Origin: Methanobacteriota archaeon
GTDB taxonomy: Archaea > JAADCQ01 > Methanopyri > Methanopyrales > Methanopyraceae
Assembly: GCA_027064305.1 (NCBI GenBank)
Contig: JAMOPY010000040.1
Location: forward strand, 1-56,564
DNA length: 56,564 nucleotides
Direction: 5' to 3'
The notes beneath the pieces were generated by a model that made no database searches, was not told the origin of the DNA, and worked only from the letters and a program-made list of their open reading frames with translations. Of this stretch, positions 22,310 to 30,165 are shown piece by piece. Within the stretch, counting starts at the first letter, position 1; each line of letters begins with the position of its first letter. The position numbers and the translations under genes were made by a program.

Positions 22310-22360
22310 CGATCCACGCTTAACCGGAGCGCGCGATGCACCGTGCGGGGTGCCCAACTC

Positions 22361-22702
22361 ATGTCCAGGCAGCCCGGAGAACCCGCCCGGGACGAGGAGG
22401 AGAAGGGCCTCATCGCCGTGAAGTACGCCCGGGAGATGCTGGGTGACGAGTACGCGGACCTCGTGGAGAAGATGCACGAGCTCGTCTGGAAGGAGTCCCC
22501 CTTGGACCCCAAGACGACGCACCTGATCGCGCTCGCCCTGGCCGCGGCGTCCGGGGACGACCGTCGGGTGGAGCTGATCGCCGAGACGGCCAAGAACGTC
22601 GCGGACGTGACGGACGAGGAGATCGCCGCCACGCTGGCCCTCGTGGCGTGGGTGGAGGGCGTGTCCAAGTCGACTAGGGCCTGGGGCGTTCTTCGTCGCT
22701 AG
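22361..22702 (+). CDS. Carboxymuconolactone decarboxylase (CMD/AhpD-like) family protein
   Basis: SPLDPKTTHLIALALAAA...VTDEEIA signature; no CxxC. Confidence 0.8.
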   Translation: MSRQPGEPARDEEEKGLIAVKYAREMLGDEYADLVEKMHELVWKESPLDPKTTHLIALALAAASGDDRRVELIAETAKNVADVTDEEIAATLALVAWVEGVSKSTRAWGVLRR

Positions 22703-23411
22703 CGGGCTCCGCCACGAACACGCATCGGCCCGCCCCCTCACCGCAGCACTCCACCTCCCGGGCCCGGTACCGCCTGCCCCGGAGCTCCGACAGGAACCCG
22801 GCGATGATCCCGGCCTCCAGGGGACACGCGGGACCGTACGGCAGGTCCGAGCACTCGCGGCACCCCTCGATCTCCACGATCACTCGGTCTCCGTCCCTCC
22901 GCACCCTCACGTCGTCCGCTATGGGGCTCAGGTACTCCTCCAGCCTACCCTCGTCCCCGCCCTTCCGAGCCAGCCGGCGGCCGATCTCCCTCCCGATCTC
23001 GTACAGGACCTCCTGAGCGTCGATCCCCAGCGACTCGATCACCGACCGGTAGGCGGCCGAGATCGCGAGCAGGATCGAGGTCCTCGGGTCCCTCCCCCGC
23101 TCCAACGCCCTGGCCACGTACTTCACGGCGTCATCCAGCCGGGGACCCGACACGGTGACCGGGCGACCTGCCAACCCGTAGTAGCGTCGCGGCCTCGGCA
23201 CGCCCCGCTCCTCCCGCACGACGCGGACCAGCCCGGCCCGCTCCAGCTCCTTCAGGTGGTGGTGCACCGTCGACTTGGACATGCCCAGCTCCCGGGCCAG
23301 GTCGGACAGCGTCATCGGTCCACGCTCTCGGAGCAGCTCCAGGATCCGGCGCCGAGACTCGCTGTTCAAGGCCCGGGCCATATCTTCTGGAACGTTAACT
23401 AAAAGCCTCAT
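22674..23411 (-). CDS. msvR: ArsR-type HTH plus V4R regulator (MsvR-like)
   Basis: ALNSESRRRILELL...MSKSTVHHHLKELERAGLV; V4R with CRECS, CPLEAGIIAG, EVECC, CVF. Confidence 0.85.
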   Translation of the reverse strand: MRLLVNVPEDMARALNSESRRRILELLRERGPMTLSDLARELGMSKSTVHHHLKELERAGLVRVVREERGVPRPRRYYGLAGRPVTVSGPRLDDAVKYVARALERGRDPRTSILLAISAAYRSVIESLGIDAQEVLYEIGREIGRRLARKGGDEGRLEEYLSPIADDVRVRRDGDRVIVEIEGCRECSDLPYGPACPLEAGIIAGFLSELRGRRYRAREVECCGEGAGRCVFVAEPASDEERPRP

Positions 23412-23454
23412 GCTGAGACCCCCCGCTGGGCCGTCCCGCTCCCGGGATCGCCGG

Positions 23455-23474
23455 TGTTCGATGCTCATCTAATT
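23455..23474. promoter_or_regulatory. Degenerate MsvR-like box upstream of msvR
   Basis: TGTTCGA-N6-TCTAATT. Confidence 0.4.
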
Positions 23475-23515: not shown

Positions 23516-23977
23516 TTACCCCTCCTCCCGAATGATGACCCGGCAGTGGCTGCGCTCTATGGGATCATGCTCCAGCTTCACGTCGTCCCGACCCATCGCC
23601 CTGAGCACTTCCTCCATGGTCGTCACGAACGGGCACACGTTGTACCCGAACACCGCCTCGCGCAGCTTCGGATGCCGCTCCACGAACTCCTCCACCAGGT
23701 CCCGGGTGCAGATCTTGCAACCCTTGATCTCCACCACCGTCCCCGAGTCCTCCTCGGTCACCTCGGGGTCCGCGCCCAGCAGGCTCTCCGCGGCCTCCCG
23801 AATCAGGTCGACGGGGTCGTACTCCTCCATCTCCCGATGCTCCCGAAGCAGGGCCCGGGCGGCGTTGCGGCACACGGACCGCCTCAGGGCCGGGGCCCGG
23901 TTACCCAGCAGCTCCGCGGAGGTCACCACGTACGAGTACATGAACGCGCGCAGGAAGTCCCGGGGACCGATCTCCAT
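23516..23977 (-). CDS. Small Cys-containing V4R-like hypothetical protein
   Basis: VVEIKGCKIC, NVCPF, C-terminal CRVII pattern; lies between frhB-like and msvR. Confidence 0.65.
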   Translation of the reverse strand: MEIGPRDFLRAFMYSYVVTSAELLGNRAPALRRSVCRNAARALLREHREMEEYDPVDLIREAAESLLGADPEVTEEDSGTVVEIKGCKICTRDLVEEFVERHPKLREAVFGYNVCPFVTTMEEVLRAMGRDDVKLEHDPIERSHCRVIIREEG

Positions 23978-24024
23978 CCCGACTTCCCCTGCGGGGGAAC
24001 GGGGCCGGGTGGTAAAAAAATGGA

Positions 24025-24936
24025 TCACGGGCCCGAGGGGTGGTAGGGGCGCCACGTCGCGCACCGGGAGTCGCGCACCCGCTCCCGCTTGTCCCGGGCC
24101 AGCCGCTCCAGCACCTTCGGATCGCCCTCACTCACCTCCCGGGTCTCCAGCCTCCCGGCGTCCACGGCGGACTGCAGGATCTCCTCGCCCCGGTCGGTGC
24201 GCGTCAGCACGACGTTCCAACCGTCCGGGGCGCCCGTGGATCCGACGCTCACGTCCGCGTCCTCGGCCGTCAGGTCGGCGCAGAAGTGGCACGCCTCGTT
24301 AGCGTACCGGCTCAGCCGCGAGACGGGCACCGTCCGCTCCTCGCCGTCCTCGGTGACCACGGTGAACTTGCCCGCCGTGATGTCCATGCGTTCCACCCGT
24401 GAGGGGTCGACCCCGAGCTCCTCGCGCAGCAGGCGTTGCAGGTTCTCGTACTCCAGGTTCTCGGAGCAGAAGATGCCCACGAGCAGTCGAACGCGCTCCG
24501 CGACGTCGGCCACCCCGTGCGCGTACCGCTCCGCCTTCCGCACGGCGGTGACCTGGCACGGCGTGCCGACCAGGGCGACGGACTCGTGGGCGCTCACGGC
24601 CTCCTCGAGCAGGCTCACGTTCGGTGAGATGGCGTACTTCGAGCCCGCCGCCTCGAGCAGCTCCTCCGGGCTCGTGACGACGGTGGGCTCGGGCTTCCAC
24701 GGGTCGGACCCGGTCGTCGCCACGATCGCGGCCTCGACGAGCCCCTCCTCGAGCGCGTGGGTGAGGAGGGCGGTGGTGACTCCGCCGTCCTGGCCGGCCT
24801 CGCGGACGCGCTCGTCCGTGGCCCGGGCCAGGTACGCGCTCCGGTACGGTCCCACGAGCTCGGGGTCGAGCTCCTCACCGCCGTCGCGCCGGCTCCTGCC
24901 GAGTACCTTCCGCAGCAGACCGCGCACGGGTTTCAC
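24025..24936 (-). CDS. F420-binding FrhB-like subunit
   Basis: QDGGVTTALL, AAGSKY, VGTPCQ, GIFCSEN, CHFCAD..AEDADVSVGS. Confidence 0.93.
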   Translation of the reverse strand: MKPVRGLLRKVLGRSRRDGGEELDPELVGPYRSAYLARATDERVREAGQDGGVTTALLTHALEEGLVEAAIVATTGSDPWKPEPTVVTSPEELLEAAGSKYAISPNVSLLEEAVSAHESVALVGTPCQVTAVRKAERYAHGVADVAERVRLLVGIFCSENLEYENLQRLLREELGVDPSRVERMDITAGKFTVVTEDGEERTVPVSRLSRYANEACHFCADLTAEDADVSVGSTGAPDGWNVVLTRTDRGEEILQSAVDAGRLETREVSEGDPKVLERLARDKRERVRDSRCATWRPYHPSGP

Positions 24937-24943
24937 CCCCCGG

Positions 24944-25660
24944 CTACGGCCGGAACGATCTCGGACAGACGACGAAGCACGTGCCGCATCGAATGCATCG
25001 TTCCTGACGGACCTCGGGCTTCTCGTCGAGCTCGATGGCCCGCGCCGGGCACGCGGCGGCGCACGTGCCGCAGCCCACGCAGAACAGGTCCCTCTCGATG
25101 ACGTCCAGGTCGCAGCCCAGGCACAGGTCCTTGTTGGACGTCAGCAGGACGTCCTCCACCTCCAGCTCCGGGCCGCGGACGGGCGCGGGCAGGTCCGGGG
25201 CCAGCCCGTGGAAGTCCCCGGACAGGACCCGGTACGGCTCGAGTCGGTCCTCGTCGCCCTCCTCCAGCGCCCGGAGGAAGGCGGCGATGGCGTCCTCGGT
25301 GGGCGGGCAGCCCGGGATCGCGTAGTCCGTGCCGGCGAACTTGGCGGCCGGGAACACCGTGAAGTGGTACCGGGCGGGCTCCCGCATGCCGATCGCGTGC
25401 CGGGCGAAGCCCCCGGTGGCGGCGCAGGAGCCCAGCGTCACGACCGTGTCGGCCGAGGTCACCGCCCGCTCGAGCCGCTCCTGGGCCTCCGCGTCCTCGA
25501 AGTCCACGGCGCCCTCCACGAACAGGACGTCCACGTCGGGCACTTCCCCGTCGTCCGTCAGGCTCGACCAGGCCAGCTCGTGACCCGTCCTCCGGCAGGC
25601 GAGCTCCAGGTTCTCCGCGCAGGACCCGCAGGACATGAGGGAGAGCAGGGCCACCCTCAC
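24944..25660 (-). CDS. FrhG-like Fe-S small subunit
   Basis: SCGSC, VEGAV, GSCAATGG, IPGCPP, plus ferredoxin motifs CVGCGTCAAACP and CIRCGTCFVVCP. Confidence 0.92.
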   Translation of the reverse strand: MRVALLSLMSCGSCAENLELACRRTGHELAWSSLTDDGEVPDVDVLFVEGAVDFEDAEAQERLERAVTSADTVVTLGSCAATGGFARHAIGMREPARYHFTVFPAAKFAGTDYAIPGCPPTEDAIAAFLRALEEGDEDRLEPYRVLSGDFHGLAPDLPAPVRGPELEVEDVLLTSNKDLCLGCDLDVIERDLFCVGCGTCAAACPARAIELDEKPEVRQERCIRCGTCFVVCPRSFRP

Positions 25661-25672
25661 GGTGCGAACCCC

Positions 25673-26770
25673 CTAGTGCGTGAGGCACCGTCCGGACAGT
25701 CCGAGCGGGCGCAGGGCCGTCTCCACCTGCTCGACCTCCAGCCCGGTCAGCAGGTCGCCCGCGAGGGCCACCTTGAAGTTGGAAGGCGTGATCATCTCGG
25801 CCCAGTCCACGCGGCCGTTCCGGAGCCGCAGTCGGACGATCAGGGTCCCCTCAGGGGCCTCCACCGCGGCCGTCCCCTCGCCGGAGCCGGCCTCCGCCTC
25901 GGCGCGGAACTCGCCGGTCGCGTCCAGGCTCGAGGCGGTGTCCGCGATCCGGTCCAGCAGCTCCGTGAGCTCCTCGGCCCGGGCCACGTGGTGGTCGGCT
26001 GGGTGCTCCGCGCCTCCCCGCCGCGCGGCGGGTCCGACCAGCGCGGGCTCGCCGTCGTACCGGGCCACGTGGTTGGTGGCCAGGCTCCTCGTGGTCCTCA
26101 TACGGTAGAACTCCGAGGGGGGTAGGACCTCGATCCTGTCGGGGTCCACCTCGCCCGTGTACGTGTCCGAGACGCTCAGCTCGGTCGGCCGGATCCGGGA
26201 CTCCACGCTCACCTCCTCCCGGAGCTCGTCCGCGGCCGACTCCACCCGGTCCCGGAGCCCCTCCGCCGCCTCGGCCGCGTCCTTGGCCACGCTCTCGAGG
26301 CGCTCCACCGGCAGCCGCTCGAGCTCCAGCCCGCCCACGGTCACGGCCGGCGGGTGGTGGGGCTTGCCGCCCACCATCCTCAGGAGCTCTCGGGCCGCGC
26401 GGACGACCTCGTGGGCCTCCTCCGCCGCGCCCGGGACGGCGGAGGCCAGCGTCCGGGCGTGGGCGCGGACCACGTTGGCCATGTTCAGCAGCTCGCGGGC
26501 CCGCCTCGCGTCGTCCGGCACGCTCACGTTCAGGGCGTCCTCGGCCGCCTCCGCCACGGCCAGTCCGGCGCTGGCGTCGCAGCCGCGGCACACCCGCTCG
26601 GCGGCCACGATGGCGAACTCCACGGGCTTCTCCAGGACCAGCGTCTCCCAGGAGAGGGGGACGGTCGTGGAGCACACCTCGGCGTTCACGATCCGGCCGT
26701 CGGAGACCTCCGCCACGGCCCGCAGCTCGCCCGGCTCCCCGGTTTTGACCGTGAGGGTTTTCACCTCCAT
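25673..26770 (-). CDS. FrhA-like hydrogenase large-subunit homologue with a degenerate [NiFe] site
   Basis: ERVCRGC (L1), GGKPHHP, GPAAR, VEAPEG, ITPS, C-terminal PLGLSGRCLTH-stop (L2 remnant). Confidence 0.88.
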   Translation of the reverse strand: MEVKTLTVKTGEPGELRAVAEVSDGRIVNAEVCSTTVPLSWETLVLEKPVEFAIVAAERVCRGCDASAGLAVAEAAEDALNVSVPDDARRARELLNMANVVRAHARTLASAVPGAAEEAHEVVRAARELLRMVGGKPHHPPAVTVGGLELERLPVERLESVAKDAAEAAEGLRDRVESAADELREEVSVESRIRPTELSVSDTYTGEVDPDRIEVLPPSEFYRMRTTRSLATNHVARYDGEPALVGPAARRGGAEHPADHHVARAEELTELLDRIADTASSLDATGEFRAEAEAGSGEGTAAVEAPEGTLIVRLRLRNGRVDWAEMITPSNFKVALAGDLLTGLEVEQVETALRPLGLSGRCLTH

Positions 26771-26805: not shown

Positions 26806-28719
26806 TCAGATACCCAGGCGCTTCCGCTTCTCCTCGATCTTGTCGGCCAGGATCTCGGCGGCCTTCTCCATGTCCGTCTCGATGATCAGCTCGCCTCCGG
26901 TGAGATCCGGCAGGTCCTCGGTCAGCGTCTTCGTGACCACCTCGCTGCCGGTCACGGGCGGGACCGGGCTCACGTGCAGCGTGAGTCCCAGCGCCAGGGC
27001 CGAGGACGCGTCCGCCAGCGCCTGTTCCTCGAGCCACTGCGGCGCGCTCGCGACGGCCGGGACGTCCGGGATGTCGATCTCTTCGCCGGTCTGCTCCCGG
27101 AGGATCTCGGCGATCTCGAAGACCAGGTGCTCGATCTTACCGATCGCGAGGCACGGTCCGTAGTGGAGCACGGGCGGAATGCCCAGGTCCTCGCAGACCT
27201 GTCGGAGGTTCTCACCGGCGAGCTCGGCCGCCTCGGGGTTGAACAGGCCGGCGTTGGCCAGGGCGCCGTTCACGCAGCCGGCGCCGAGGACGAGGATGTC
27301 CCGCTTGATCATCTCCTTGGCCAGCGTGGCGGCCGGCACGTTGTGCCCACCGCTGGCCAGGTTCGTGCAGCCCACGATCGCGCAGACGCCGCGGATGGTG
27401 CCCTCCTGGATCAGCTTGAGCACGTTCTCCCAGCCGACCGCCTCCTCGATGGAGAAGTAGCCGAAGCCCACCACGTTCTCGTGCCGGTGCTCGGGCTCCA
27501 GGATCTTGTCCTCGTGCTTCGAGCGGCGCTCCTTGAACGCCTCGATGGCCCGCCTCACGGCCTCCTCGGCCACCTCCTCCGCGCGCTCCGGGTCCCACAG
27601 GATCAGCTCCGCGCCCCACACCTTGGCCACGTCGTCCACGGCGACCAGCTTGACGTCCAGCTTCTCCCCGTAGAACTTCAGGCCCGGGAACGTGCAGTTG
27701 AACTCGCTCACGATCGCGTCCACGAGGCCCGTCGCGGCCAGGGCCTCCGTCGTGAAGTTGTTGCCCGCGAAGCCCGCGTACGTGTCCGGCAGGTGCTCCG
27801 CGCGCGCCTCGAAGTCGTCACCGACGCACGTCGCCCCGATGATCCGGATCCCCTTGGCCCCGGCCTTCTTGGCCTCCTCCTCCAGCCGCTCGGCGGCGTC
27901 CGTGAGGTACTTCTGCAGGGACATCTGGTGCCCGGTGACCATGATGTTCACGTAGTCCGGGTCCAGGATGCCCGGGCCGCCCTCCGTCTTCGTGATCCGC
28001 GGGCTCCCGAAGAGGATGTCGTTGATCGTTTCCACGCCGAACAGGGAGACCGGGCCCGTGATCAGGCCCAGCCGGAGCACGTGCAGGAGCATGTCCTCCG
28101 GGTCCGAGTTCAGGTTCGTGCTCGTCTTCACCAGCGCGTCGTGAATCTCGGCCTTGGCGCCGCCCGGGATCAGCCCCATCTCCTCGTACATCTCGACCCG
28201 CCAGTCCGGCACGACGGCCTTGAACACCTCCGACTCCTCGTACCGGGGCCGGTAGATGTCCTCCAGGATGAAGTCCGCGATCTCCTCCGCCACGTCCTCG
28301 GGCTTGCCCGAGGCGTCTAGCCCGTACACCTCCGCCGCGTGCCGCAGGGCCTCCTCGTCCGCGACCTCGTACGGGGAGTCCTCGTCCGCCACGGACTTCA
28401 GGGCCCGCGCCGCGTTCTCCAGGCAGTGCACGTAGCACGCGGCGCCCGCGGCCACGTGCCGGAGGAAGTTGCGCGCCACGATCACGTCCGCCGTGGCGCC
28501 GCACACGCCGCGCGGCGTCTTCTCCGTGATCCGACAGGGACCGTTCGAGCAGATGTTGCACCACACGCCCTGCTTACCGTACGGGCACTTCGGGAACTGC
28601 ACCGGCCACCGGATGTGCGGGGTCTCGATCTCCGGGATCTCCTCGTTCAGCCGCTTCGCGTGCTCAACCAGCTCGCGGACGACCTCGTCCGTGTACGGGC
28701 ACCGCTCCTCCTCCGACAT
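26806..28719 (-). CDS. cooS: CooS-type Ni-CODH homologue with atypical catalytic residues
   Basis: CPYGKQGVWCNICSNGPC, RGVCGA, TGHQ, ATCVG, FNCTFP, VGCTN, GAGC, YGPC, PQWLEEQA. Confidence 0.93.
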   Translation of the reverse strand: MSEEERCPYTDEVVRELVEHAKRLNEEIPEIETPHIRWPVQFPKCPYGKQGVWCNICSNGPCRITEKTPRGVCGATADVIVARNFLRHVAAGAACYVHCLENAARALKSVADEDSPYEVADEEALRHAAEVYGLDASGKPEDVAEEIADFILEDIYRPRYEESEVFKAVVPDWRVEMYEEMGLIPGGAKAEIHDALVKTSTNLNSDPEDMLLHVLRLGLITGPVSLFGVETINDILFGSPRITKTEGGPGILDPDYVNIMVTGHQMSLQKYLTDAAERLEEEAKKAGAKGIRIIGATCVGDDFEARAEHLPDTYAGFAGNNFTTEALAATGLVDAIVSEFNCTFPGLKFYGEKLDVKLVAVDDVAKVWGAELILWDPERAEEVAEEAVRRAIEAFKERRSKHEDKILEPEHRHENVVGFGYFSIEEAVGWENVLKLIQEGTIRGVCAIVGCTNLASGGHNVPAATLAKEMIKRDILVLGAGCVNGALANAGLFNPEAAELAGENLRQVCEDLGIPPVLHYGPCLAIGKIEHLVFEIAEILREQTGEEIDIPDVPAVASAPQWLEEQALADASSALALGLTLHVSPVPPVTGSEVVTKTLTEDLPDLTGGELIIETDMEKAAEILADKIEEKRKRLGI

Positions 28720-28743: not shown

Positions 28744-28803
28744 TGTTCGACCCGTATCGAACAGGGGGCCCGCCAATATAAATTTTTCGAACACCATCGA
28801 ACG
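28744..28803. promoter_or_regulatory. cooS promoter with two MsvR-like boxes flanking the TATA
   Basis: TGTTCGA-N6-TCGAACA (28744-28763), minus-strand TTTATA (28783-28778), TTTTCGA-N6-TCGAACG (28784-28803). Confidence 0.8.
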
Positions 28804-28846: not shown

Positions 28847-29617
28847 TTACTTATCGGTCGCGGTCCGGCCCTCACCGAGCGCCCGCTCCAGCGCCCGGAG
28901 CGCCGCCCGGATGTGCAGCCGGGCCCCCACGTGCAGCGGGGTGTCACCCAGCCTCTCGTCCACCTCCATCGACGCCGTGCACGGGAAGGAGTGATGCGCC
29001 TCGAACGCCGCCTCCCTCACCGCCTCCGGCTCCGCGTCCACGCCCACCAGCCTCCGGGCCACGAACCACGTGCACCCGCACGGGGCCGACCGGATCACGC
29101 CGGCCCCCACCACGACCCCGCCCTCCACCCTCAGGGACAGTCGAGGGCGCCCGATCCGCCCCCTCTCGCAGAACCGCTCGGTCACGGGGCCGGGCGGCTC
29201 CAGGTCGCACCCCGGTCGGGCGATGGTGAGCTCCACCCCGGCCCCCTCGCAGGCCTCCCTCAGCCGATCCTCCGTCCACGGGTCGATCCAGTCGGGCGCC
29301 TCGACGGGAACGATCAGGGCCCGGATCTCGTACCGCTCCGGCAGCTCCATCAGCAGGTCGGGGTGCAGCCGGACCGCCAGCAGCACGTCGACCCGGGGCA
29401 GCTCGGGCAGGTACTCGTCCGGATCCTCGAGCATCTCGGGCAGCTCTTCGGGCCCGGGGAGCCGCTCCGCGGTGACCAGGTCGTCGAGCAGGGAGTACTC
29501 CCCGTACTTGCACCCGTCGCACGCGGATCCGCAGGCGCGGCAGTGACCGGGCTCGTTCACCAGGTTGGAGATCACCCTCTCCCCGAACGGGTGGGAGTAG
29601 AGGACGGCGAAGCGCAC
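28847..29617 (-). CDS. DUF166-family protein
   Basis: FGERVISNL, CRACGSACDGC, LHPD, SAPCGCTWFVA, HHSFPCTASM. Confidence 0.75.
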   Translation of the reverse strand: MRFAVLYSHPFGERVISNLVNEPGHCRACGSACDGCKYGEYSLLDDLVTAERLPGPEELPEMLEDPDEYLPELPRVDVLLAVRLHPDLLMELPERYEIRALIVPVEAPDWIDPWTEDRLREACEGAGVELTIARPGCDLEPPGPVTERFCERGRIGRPRLSLRVEGGVVVGAGVIRSAPCGCTWFVARRLVGVDAEPEAVREAAFEAHHSFPCTASMEVDERLGDTPLHVGARLHIRAALRALERALGEGRTATDK

Positions 29618-29667
29618 CCCTCTCACCCCGGGGTTCGGCCTCACGATCCTTCCGCCGCCCCGGATTA

Positions 29668-29688
29668 TCGTTTTGATAATCATAACGA
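29668..29688. repeat. 21-bp palindrome, copy 6 (TCGTTTTG ATAAT CATAACGA)
   Basis: 24 nt past the stop of the rubrerythrin-like gene. Confidence 0.7.
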
Positions 29689-30137: not shown

Positions 30138-30165
30138 TTTAAACTTTTTCGAATTTGATCGAACA
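30138..30165. promoter_or_regulatory. Promoter of the rubrerythrin-like gene with an MsvR-like box
   Basis: TTTAAA (30138-30143) next to TTTTCGA-N6-TCGAACA (30146-30165). Confidence 0.75.

Follow-up and report, generated by a model that had tools for sequence, protein, structure and literature searches.

A degenerate F420-reducing hydrogenase large subunit encoded with a clade C CODH-like protein in Methanopyrus, most likely retained as a scaffold

Gene cluster and active-site motifs of FrhA*

Within the window, i.e. the whole stretch of 56,564 nucleotides analyzed, a gene cluster encoding a CODH-family protein (CooS) and three proteins related to subunits of F420-reducing hydrogenase (termed FrhA*, FrhG* and FrhB*) was found (Table 1). 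The gene order cooS-frhA*-frhG*-frhB*-ORF is kept in all five relatives compared, with the genes for the DUF166 and rubrerythrin-like proteins upstream, and the ArsR-V4R regulator gene is located on the opposite side of the cluster in G003 and cut by the contig end in G005. The ORF behind frhB* (23516-24064) has mostly unnamed neighbors in the Atlas, some of them RdxA_C-like; a V4R label for this ORF was rejected, as it received no support from Pfam. The absence of frhD from the operon was not used as evidence, because the gap between canonical fruA and fruG also measures only approximately 160 bp. Overall, the operon, with cooS, frhG, frhB and a stress regulator, carries most of the functional information on frhA*.

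Table 1. Genes, motifs and promoter boxes of the cooS-frhA*G*B* cluster (positions within the window).
Feature	Position	Strand	Basis
CMD/AhpD-like protein, convergent	22343..22702	+	PF02627
ArsR-type HTH + V4R regulator, MsvR-like architecture	22674..23468	-	in cluster in 5/5 relatives
Conserved ORF immediately behind frhB*, no Pfam match	23516..24064	-	syntenic in 5/5 relatives
frhB*: F420/FAD-binding subunit	24025..24936	-	PRK09325, 334 bits (cut-off 269); TIGR03289, 286 bits (below cut-off 331.5)
frhG*: small subunit, proximal-cluster C11, C14, C79, C118 and 2x[4Fe-4S] ferredoxin domain	24944..25660	-	
frhA*: degenerate group 3a [NiFe]-hydrogenase large-subunit paralogue, 365 aa, His365 last	25673..26770	-	translation, homology, profiles, Foldseek
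L2 remnant S359-G-R361-C362-L-T-H365 (Cys3 to Ser, new Arg, Cys4 retained)	25676..25696	-	translation and alignment
E307 at canopy Arg position	25850..25852	-	alignment to 4CI0 and orthologues
L1 CxxC (C61-R-G-C64), then D65	26579..26590	-	translation and alignment
cooS, clade C (group C-3 type) CODH-family protein	26806..28719	-	profiles and alignment
TTCGA-N6-TCGAA box between TATA-like box and cooS start	28746..28761		motif scan
TTCGA-N6-TCGAA palindrome abutting AT-rich TATA-like box upstream of cooS	28786..28801		motif scan
DUF166 protein	28847..29683	-	PF02593
Rubrerythrin/ferritin-like protein, 128 aa	29713..30099	-	PF02915
TTCGA-N6-TCGAA box abutting TATA-like box of rubrerythrin-like gene	30148..30163		motif scan

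Archaeal clade C cooS genes were previously described as adjoining F420-reducing hydrogenase genes in PMC3082573 and PMC13240472, the accessible portions of which leave the alpha subunit unremarked, and the same cooS genes are called unlinked in the accessible portion of PMC3328121. The neighborhood is therefore already published as that of an ordinary hydrogenase. A degenerate alpha subunit was not reported in the openly accessible papers covered by full-text searches, and the locus tags MJ0725-MJ0728 matched none of these papers.

The translation of frhA* (25676-26770, reverse strand) comprises 365 stop-free codons and is followed immediately by the stop codon TAG (25673-25675). Among solved structures, FrhA from F420-reducing hydrogenases is closest (4CI0, E value 5e-23), and the TIGR03295 profile scored 115 bits against a cut-off of 392.5. 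An AF2 model (mean pLDDT 71, pTM 0.75) predicts the large-subunit fold, its top Foldseek matches being FrhA structures with TMq values of 0.73-0.79 (0.79 to 6QGR); residues 360-365 were modeled with a pLDDT below 50.

In comparison with FrhA of 4CI0, the motif RQEGH is represented by GEPGE (Arg to Gly, proton-gate Glu to Pro, His to Glu), APRG by APEG, with Glu replacing the canopy Arg, and YDPCLSCATH by LGLSGRCLTH, with loss of both the canopy Asp and Cys3. In Hyd-1 numbering, the missing residues are E28, R509, D574 and the terminal Ni ligand C576. Among the features by which hydrogenases are recognized, accompanying frhG and frhB genes are present, and the L1 motif RxCxxC has both cysteines in all 11 aligned Methanopyrus sequences but not in the Methanococci orthologues. 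Furthermore, Mg-site Glu42 and His365 are retained in Methanopyrus FrhA*. Four defining features place FrhA* outside [NiFe] hydrogenases: GLSGRCLTH stands in place of the L2 motif DPCxxCxxH with Cys/Sec3 and Cys4, the arginine of APRG is missing (APEG in 11/11), Pro13 occupies the position of the proton-gate Glu of RxEGH (11/11), and the stop codon follows His without a cleavable C-terminal extension (6/6 genomes).

These losses are not attributable to chance or sequencing error, because they are identical in 11/11 aligned sequences, down to 54% identity, and the codon TCC is present in 6/6 genomes. Selenocysteine or a sequencing error at Ser359 (25694-25696, TCC and not TGA) was thus ruled out. 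A missed N-terminus was likewise rejected: the longer in-frame ORF starting with GTG (to 27037) overlaps cooS and lacks RxEGH, and the orthologues begin at the Met equivalent to 26770. Cys33 (26672-26674), located at an aromatic position of canonical FrhA, was found to be invariant in 11/11 Methanopyrus sequences; the corresponding segment is missing in Methanococci.

An earlier note on this DNA, made from the sequence alone, had described both cysteines of RVCRGC, the change of L2 to GLSGRCLTH with Ser encoded by TCC instead of a Sec TGA, EAPEG for EAPRG, the absent RxEGH and an end at His without extension, and all of these readings agree with the results above. The note had also proposed that H2 chemistry is lost. 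According to the accessible text of PMC10430524, the canopy Arg is strictly conserved in hydrogenases and its exchange for Lys leaves approximately 1-10% of H2 oxidation, and Glu28 and Cys576 form a coupled proton gate as described in the accessible part of PMC8020662. Since three features whose importance is known from mutagenesis are gone together, FrhA* is very probably devoid of H2 activity, as the note had suspected.

A separate FruA with the canonical motifs, a TGA codon at Cys3 and an extended C-terminus is encoded in 6/6 genomes; in the same genome as FrhA*, the FruA extension comprises approximately 22 residues. Reduction of F420 by H2 is therefore already covered. G002 encodes an extra large subunit (L032, G002:C1:1383474-1386860) with canonical-looking RVCGPC, EAPRG and NPCNSCASH motifs, which among the listed matches occurred only in this genome.

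Conservation in Methanopyrus and divergence in Methanococci

The search for frhA* homologues yielded nine proteins of 54-99% identity, all named ones originating from Methanopyrus. The query and one further, fetched locus were added to the alignment (n=11, two rows being near-copies of the query), and C61, C64, D65, E307, S359, R361, C362, H365 as well as the end at His were common to all 11 sequences. Each of the six genomes of the class encodes one orthologue. In cultured species, orthologues are represented by the named records AAM01752.1 (M. kandleri AV19) and MJ0727 (M. jannaschii). A profile search of 1.84 billion representatives returned a single frhA*-family representative among its best 150 matches, the rest being ordinary-looking large subunits; it cannot show absence of frhA* elsewhere, because the Methanococci orthologue was itself missing among these 150. 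One metatranscriptome showed 5% shared words and provided 20 short contigs from related strains, of which one matched frhA* (195 bases, 25 differences), too weak a match to support transcription.

Simple NG86 estimates of dN/dS over five genome pairs, which are rough values for such GC-rich DNA, amounted to 0.20-0.44 for frhA*, 0.18-0.40 for frhB*, 0.11-0.26 for frhG*, 0.03-0.16 for cooS and 0.06-0.14 for fruA. The frhA* values are two to six times those of fruA and the highest or second-highest among the five genes. They bear out the claim of the earlier note that the intact ORF reflects selection and suggest that this selection is relaxed. In nine sequences, 25 of the 28 pocket positions, hand-picked after viewing the alignment, were invariant compared to 104 of 337 elsewhere; this invariance is no proof of a cofactor, because the positions were hand-picked and are buried.

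Outside Methanopyrus, the nearest cooS was found in Methanocaldococcus (56% identity). In total, 40 Methanococci genomes were screened, of which 15 encode a 298-aa FrhA-like protein and 14 a near-identical cooS; three further genomes possess only a distant cooS (~35%). The FrhA-like gene is located directly behind the C-3 cooS in all 14 genomes having that cooS. The Methanococci orthologue has lost its first ~40 residues and, in 15/15 cases, Cys2 of L1 (Asn or Thr instead), and retains both L2 cysteines as CERC, including Cys3. The 14 unfused copies stop at the position of the mature terminus and lack the terminal His. Accordingly, three of the four cysteines are kept in each lineage, the third one being different. 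The earlier note had suggested checking whether orthologues share the substitutions: all states recur in 11/11 Methanopyrus sequences, but Ser is absent from Methanococci; the Arg-to-Glu exchange is common to both lineages, as are a new L2 Arg and an L1 acid.

In G194 (L096:8309-9496, G194:C1), a complete genome without cooS, a diverged, degenerate FrhA is fused to the N-terminal half of FrhG, which contains the proximal cluster, in a protein of 395 aa. No frhB adjoins this alpha-G fusion, which may be either a relic or a minimal unit with a role of its own. Considering the Methanococci states and the erosion in the cooS-less G194, Ser359 is lineage-specific and the family largely cooS-dependent. 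All four proximal-cluster cysteines of FrhG* are kept in both lineages and also in the G194 fusion.

In unrooted trees, the cooS-linked copies of both lineages were separated from canonical copies for FrhG (99/99) and for FrhB (99/98, with a long-branch warning). The cooS-linked G and B copies thus share ancestry, common descent and transfer being indistinguishable in unrooted trees. A recent fru duplication restricted to Methanopyrus was rejected for FrhG (AU p=0.0086). In an FrhA tree, the two degenerate groups were joined at SH-aLRT 92 outside group 3a on long branches; this result was not relied on, because it originates from a quick tree with a long-branch warning.

The partner CooS and the oxidative-stress context

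CooS possesses the six C-cluster ligands of CODH, one His and five Cys (H264, C298, C342, C451, C482, C523), and the B-cluster motif is present in the alignment. The acid-base residues His93 and Lys563 and the auxiliary Cys294 are represented by Tyr96, Gln566 and Thr297, and of the two D-cluster cysteines per monomer one remains (Cys45 and Trp53). Complete C-cluster ligands, Tyr/Gln for His/Lys and one D-cluster Cys characterize group C-3 of clade C in the accessible text of PMC6344411, and CooS, as judged by sequence, fits this group. In the sequence comparison of 124 CooS proteins (114 of them database proteins), the Tyr/Gln/Thr states were universal (114/114 others), and the second D-cluster Cys was lost in 9/9 proteins of the Methanopyrus/Methanococci type and kept in the 115 other clade C proteins aligned. 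The usual electron exit of CooS appears to be altered in the lineage that gained Frh partners.

A single N-terminal Cys of CooS, C7 (28699-28701), occurs in Methanopyrus and Methanococci and could either replace the missing ligand of the D-cluster or be left over from the N-terminal Cys motif of clade C. The cooS gene of G093 (L079:6534-8621, G093:C1) contains an internal duplication of ~57 codons and encodes 695 aa in an open frame. Canonical CdhA is encoded elsewhere in the five genomes tested, and in Methanopyrus genomes a second, divergent CdhA-like ORF of ~640-670 aa follows canonical cdhA (G000:C23:2864-4543). No cooC-like gene was observed among the ORFs listed for the operon.

Published data bearing on CO activity are in conflict. 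The DvCODH variant C301S, equivalent to Cys294, contained no Ni and was inactive, and mutants at the equivalent position were Ni-free and inactive in two enzymes according to the accessible part of PMC6168284, whereas the clade C CooS of T. kivui is cited in the accessible part of PMC13056359 as required for CO-dependent growth, its CO oxidation being low and the strain CO-adapted. For this reason, CO activity of Methanopyrus CooS is uncertain.

Within the 1.2-Mb assembly, the palindrome TTCGA-N6-TCGAA was detected at three sites, two in the cooS promoter and one in the rbr promoter (five shuffles: 0-2), and two of these boxes abut AT-rich TATA-like boxes. With one C-to-T variant allowed, it was present upstream of cooS and rbr in 5/5 relatives, and extra sites occurred elsewhere in some. 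Extra TTYGA-N6-TCGAA sites in G001 (G001:C1:389182, 484890, 737320 and 1168319) match sites in G002, have near-identical spacers and possibly mark other regulon members. In the accessible text of PMC3729527, the MsvR motif is given as TTCG-N7-9-CGAA, and MsvR represses an F420H2-oxidase gene when reduced. At the sequence level, both elements of an MsvR regulon, i.e. a regulator with ArsR-HTH and V4R domains and a TTCG-N7-9-CGAA promoter box, were found in the cluster. The looser TTCG-N8-CGAA was not enriched genome-wide (11 vs. 10-21 in shuffled sequences), nor was the literal MsvR consensus with up to three mismatches in the window (7 vs. 4.2 +/- 2.3), and a scan for sigma-70 promoters, a bacterial type irrelevant for archaea, gave no match.

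In most of the Methanococci loci read (group g24), the operon is located among genes for SOR, peroxiredoxin, ferritin, rubrerythrin, FprA-like/flavodiiron and HCP proteins; this stress-gene island is reduced in G231 and G154. The box was absent from the seven g24 operon loci scanned. Moreover, a member of an unrelated archaeal family, G039 (L080:3599-9771, G039:C46), carries a clade C cooS with intact D-cluster cysteines and without frh genes. Next to this gene are the same TTCGA-N6-TCGAA box and genes for an ArsR-V4R protein, a DUF166 protein and subunit I of cytochrome bd, and the locus appears to represent a parallel stress module. In Methanopyrus, FprA was found in none of six genomes (one query), SOR in none of five (control positive) and an HCP-sized prismane protein in none of five; F420H2 derived from CO would consequently have no recognized O2 sink there.

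Proposed function and comparison with known systems

The sequences themselves show the residue losses, the selection, the operon, the common origin of the G copies and of the B copies, and the promoter boxes, whereas a physical complex with CooS and regulation by stress are proposed. The explanation tentatively placed first is an H2-dead FrhA* scaffold in a redox-stress module, in which electrons would pass from F420H2 to CooS and reduce an oxidant. That FrhA* acts as a scaffold without catalysis of its own is probable; a flow from F420H2 to CooS is slightly favored, and a flow from CO to F420 is considered the less likely direction, though a plausible one.

FrhA* would keep the large-subunit fold, be unable to activate H2 and support FrhG* structurally, covering its proximal [4Fe-4S] domain and stabilizing the A-G-B assembly. 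In bacteria, clade C CooS is partnered by CooF and a flavin oxidoreductase; FrhG* and FrhB* would take over these positions, and the redox partner would therefore be F420. The neighboring MsvR-like regulator probably represses the operon and releases it on oxidation. F420H2 produced from H2 by Fru/Hmd would then deliver electrons via the flavin of FrhB* and the clusters of FrhG* to that of CooS. There, an oxidant derived from O2 or a nitrogen-oxide species may be reduced, or electrons disposed of, similar to hybrid-cluster proteins. This direction is proposed because of the CooS substitutions and because no F420H2 oxidase was recognized in Methanopyrus. The structural role, one of two options raised in the earlier note, is the best-supported one for FrhA*. 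Several observations speak against parts of this explanation: conservation of the pocket might exceed the need of a pure spacer; the retained proximal-cluster cysteines of FrhG* are a wire without destination; CO use by the T. kivui enzyme (cited in PMC13056359), the clade-wide occurrence of the Tyr/Gln/Thr states and the single query behind the FprA result count against the direction of flow; and the boxes missing from the Methanococci loci scanned, the reduced island in G231 and G154 and the lack of genome-wide enrichment of the looser motif count against the stress link.

The same H2-dead scaffold could alternatively belong to a CO:F420 oxidoreductase, possible but on balance unlikely, in which CooS oxidizes CO and supplies F420H2, thereby eliminating an inhibitor of hydrogenases or, during inactivation of these enzymes, supplying O2 detoxification. 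Electron transfer from CO to F420 is strongly exergonic, the C-cluster ligands are complete, and FprA-like genes adjoin the operon in g24 Methanococci. A role of this kind has been proposed for bacterial cooS-cooF-FNOR of clade C (accessible part of PMC13240472), and the link of the T. kivui CooS to CO use points the same way. However, His93, Lys563 and Cys294 are all substituted, no cooC-like gene is among the operon's ORFs, canonical CdhA is available elsewhere in the genomes tested (5/5), and the single FprA query found no match in Methanopyrus (0/6).

More doubtful is a rebuilt FrhA* site. Here, Cys1 and Cys4 would hold a mononuclear metal or thiol/persulfide redox center whose properties are adjusted by the new Glu, Arg and acid and which is connected to the FrhG* proximal cluster; this center could catalyze the reduction of peroxide or sulfane, sense the redox state or store nickel for CooS. 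Cys1, Cys4, the canopy Glu, the Arg at L2+2 and the acid after the Cys2 position are conserved in 11/11 Methanopyrus and 15/15 Methanococci sequences. In a set of 149 other large-subunit representatives, an Arg at L2+2 was found in 0/119 with a parsable motif, the canopy Glu in 3/136 regex matches and an acid after an intact Cys2 in 1/135. Retention of three of four cysteines by both lineages and of the proximal-cluster cysteines, G194 included, fits such a site. Yet the third Cys differs by lineage, the dN/dS of frhA* exceeds that of fruA severalfold, the leftover cysteines of MbsL are dispensable in the accessible text of PMC7684303, and the new Arg and acids could merely plug an empty cavity by salt bridges. 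The other option of the earlier note, that three cysteines plus the new Glu and Ser bind another metal, is accordingly weakened: a Ser-based site is argued against by the Methanococci, which keep Cys3 and lose Cys2 instead (15/15), and Cys1, Cys4 and the three new charged residues are what both lineages have in common. Different decay in Methanococci is expected of a scaffold.

A further-reaching version, rather unlikely, holds that the [NiFe] pocket was re-engineered once into a new catalytic center, before or during spread between Methanopyri and Methanococci. Cys1 and Cys4, the swapped Glu/Arg pair and the extra acid would form a metal-bound or purely thiol-based center, to which F420H2 supplies electrons via the intact proximal cluster. 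Two non-canonical active sites, an ex-hydrogenase and an ex-CODH one, would then share a single F420 wire, and the complex would represent the principal oxidant defense of Methanopyrus.

A decaying duplicate without present function, carried along in the operon, is improbable: the high dN/dS rank, the long branches and the eroded G194 fusion would suit it, but the frame is open in 6/6 Methanopyrus and 15/15 Methanococci genomes down to 45-55% identity, dN/dS is well below 1 and motifs are invariant. Least probable is a slow or sensory [NiFe] hydrogenase as given in database annotation, for which the retained fold, the bridging cysteines and Glu42/His365 of Methanopyrus and the existence of some true hydrogenases without a cleavable tail can be cited, since Arg, Glu gate, canopy Asp and Ni ligand are lost together and the Methanococci orthologues also lack a bridging Cys and the terminal His.

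Returning to the scaffold explanation, FrhA* is most likely a conserved pseudo-hydrogenase subunit of hot-vent methanogens, kept intact as a scaffold and part of an unstudied complex that, under oxygen stress, most likely connects F420 with an atypical protein resembling CO dehydrogenase. The results correct a standing annotation, as two papers, as far as their text was accessible, and databases treat the genes as an F420-reducing hydrogenase beside cooS. Moreover, they offer a handle on the function of clade C CooS, with F420 as partner and a candidate regulator identifiable, and may account for the ability of Methanopyrus to withstand oxidants although the usual F420H2 oxidase is missing.

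Among known systems, FrhAGB (group 3a; 4CI0, 3ZFS, 6QGR, 9R51) is the best sequence and fold match and shares the A-G-B gene set, the FrhG clusters, the FrhB motifs and, in Methanopyrus, the Mg-site Glu and His. It differs in that FrhA* lacks the Arg, Glu gate, canopy Asp, Cys3 and C-terminal extension and is co-encoded with cooS, true FruAGB being encoded separately in the genome. The bacterial clade C modules (cooS-cooF-FNOR, T. kivui CooS and the context of C. hydrogenoformans CODH-IV), as described in the accessible sources, have in common with this locus the Tyr/Gln CooS clade, ferredoxin and flavoprotein partners and proposed stress roles; unlike there, the partners here are Frh-derived and of F420 type, and the second D-cluster Cys is lost. 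CooS-V of C. hydrogenoformans, the second-best PDB match of CooS, and hybrid cluster proteins provide another parallel: in the accessible text of PMC9311411, CooS-V is a CODH scaffold without CO chemistry and with slow hydroxylamine turnover. CooS-V, however, has Glu at Cys295, whereas Methanopyrus CooS keeps that Cys and changes Cys294. The MsvR regulon (fpaA; Methanothermobacter/Methanosarcina) resembles the locus, as far as PMC3729527 was accessible, in its ArsR and V4R regulator and the TTCG-N8-CGAA repeat at BRE/TATA; the likeness is one of architecture, and the candidate targets here are cooS-frhA*G*B* and a ferritin-like gene instead of fpaA. Finally, in MbsL of MBS and NuoD of complex I the [NiFe] site was likewise lost and the fold kept as a scaffold with some cysteines left, those of MbsL (C85/C385) being non-catalytic in the accessible text of PMC7684303. 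Both are membrane-bound group 4 derivatives, whereas FrhA* is a soluble group 3a derivative that keeps three cysteines beside a normally spaced proximal CxxC of the small subunit. If the proposed function is true, FrhA* would represent a soluble group 3a counterpart of the MBS/complex I route, in which the metal site is lost and the large subunit reused.
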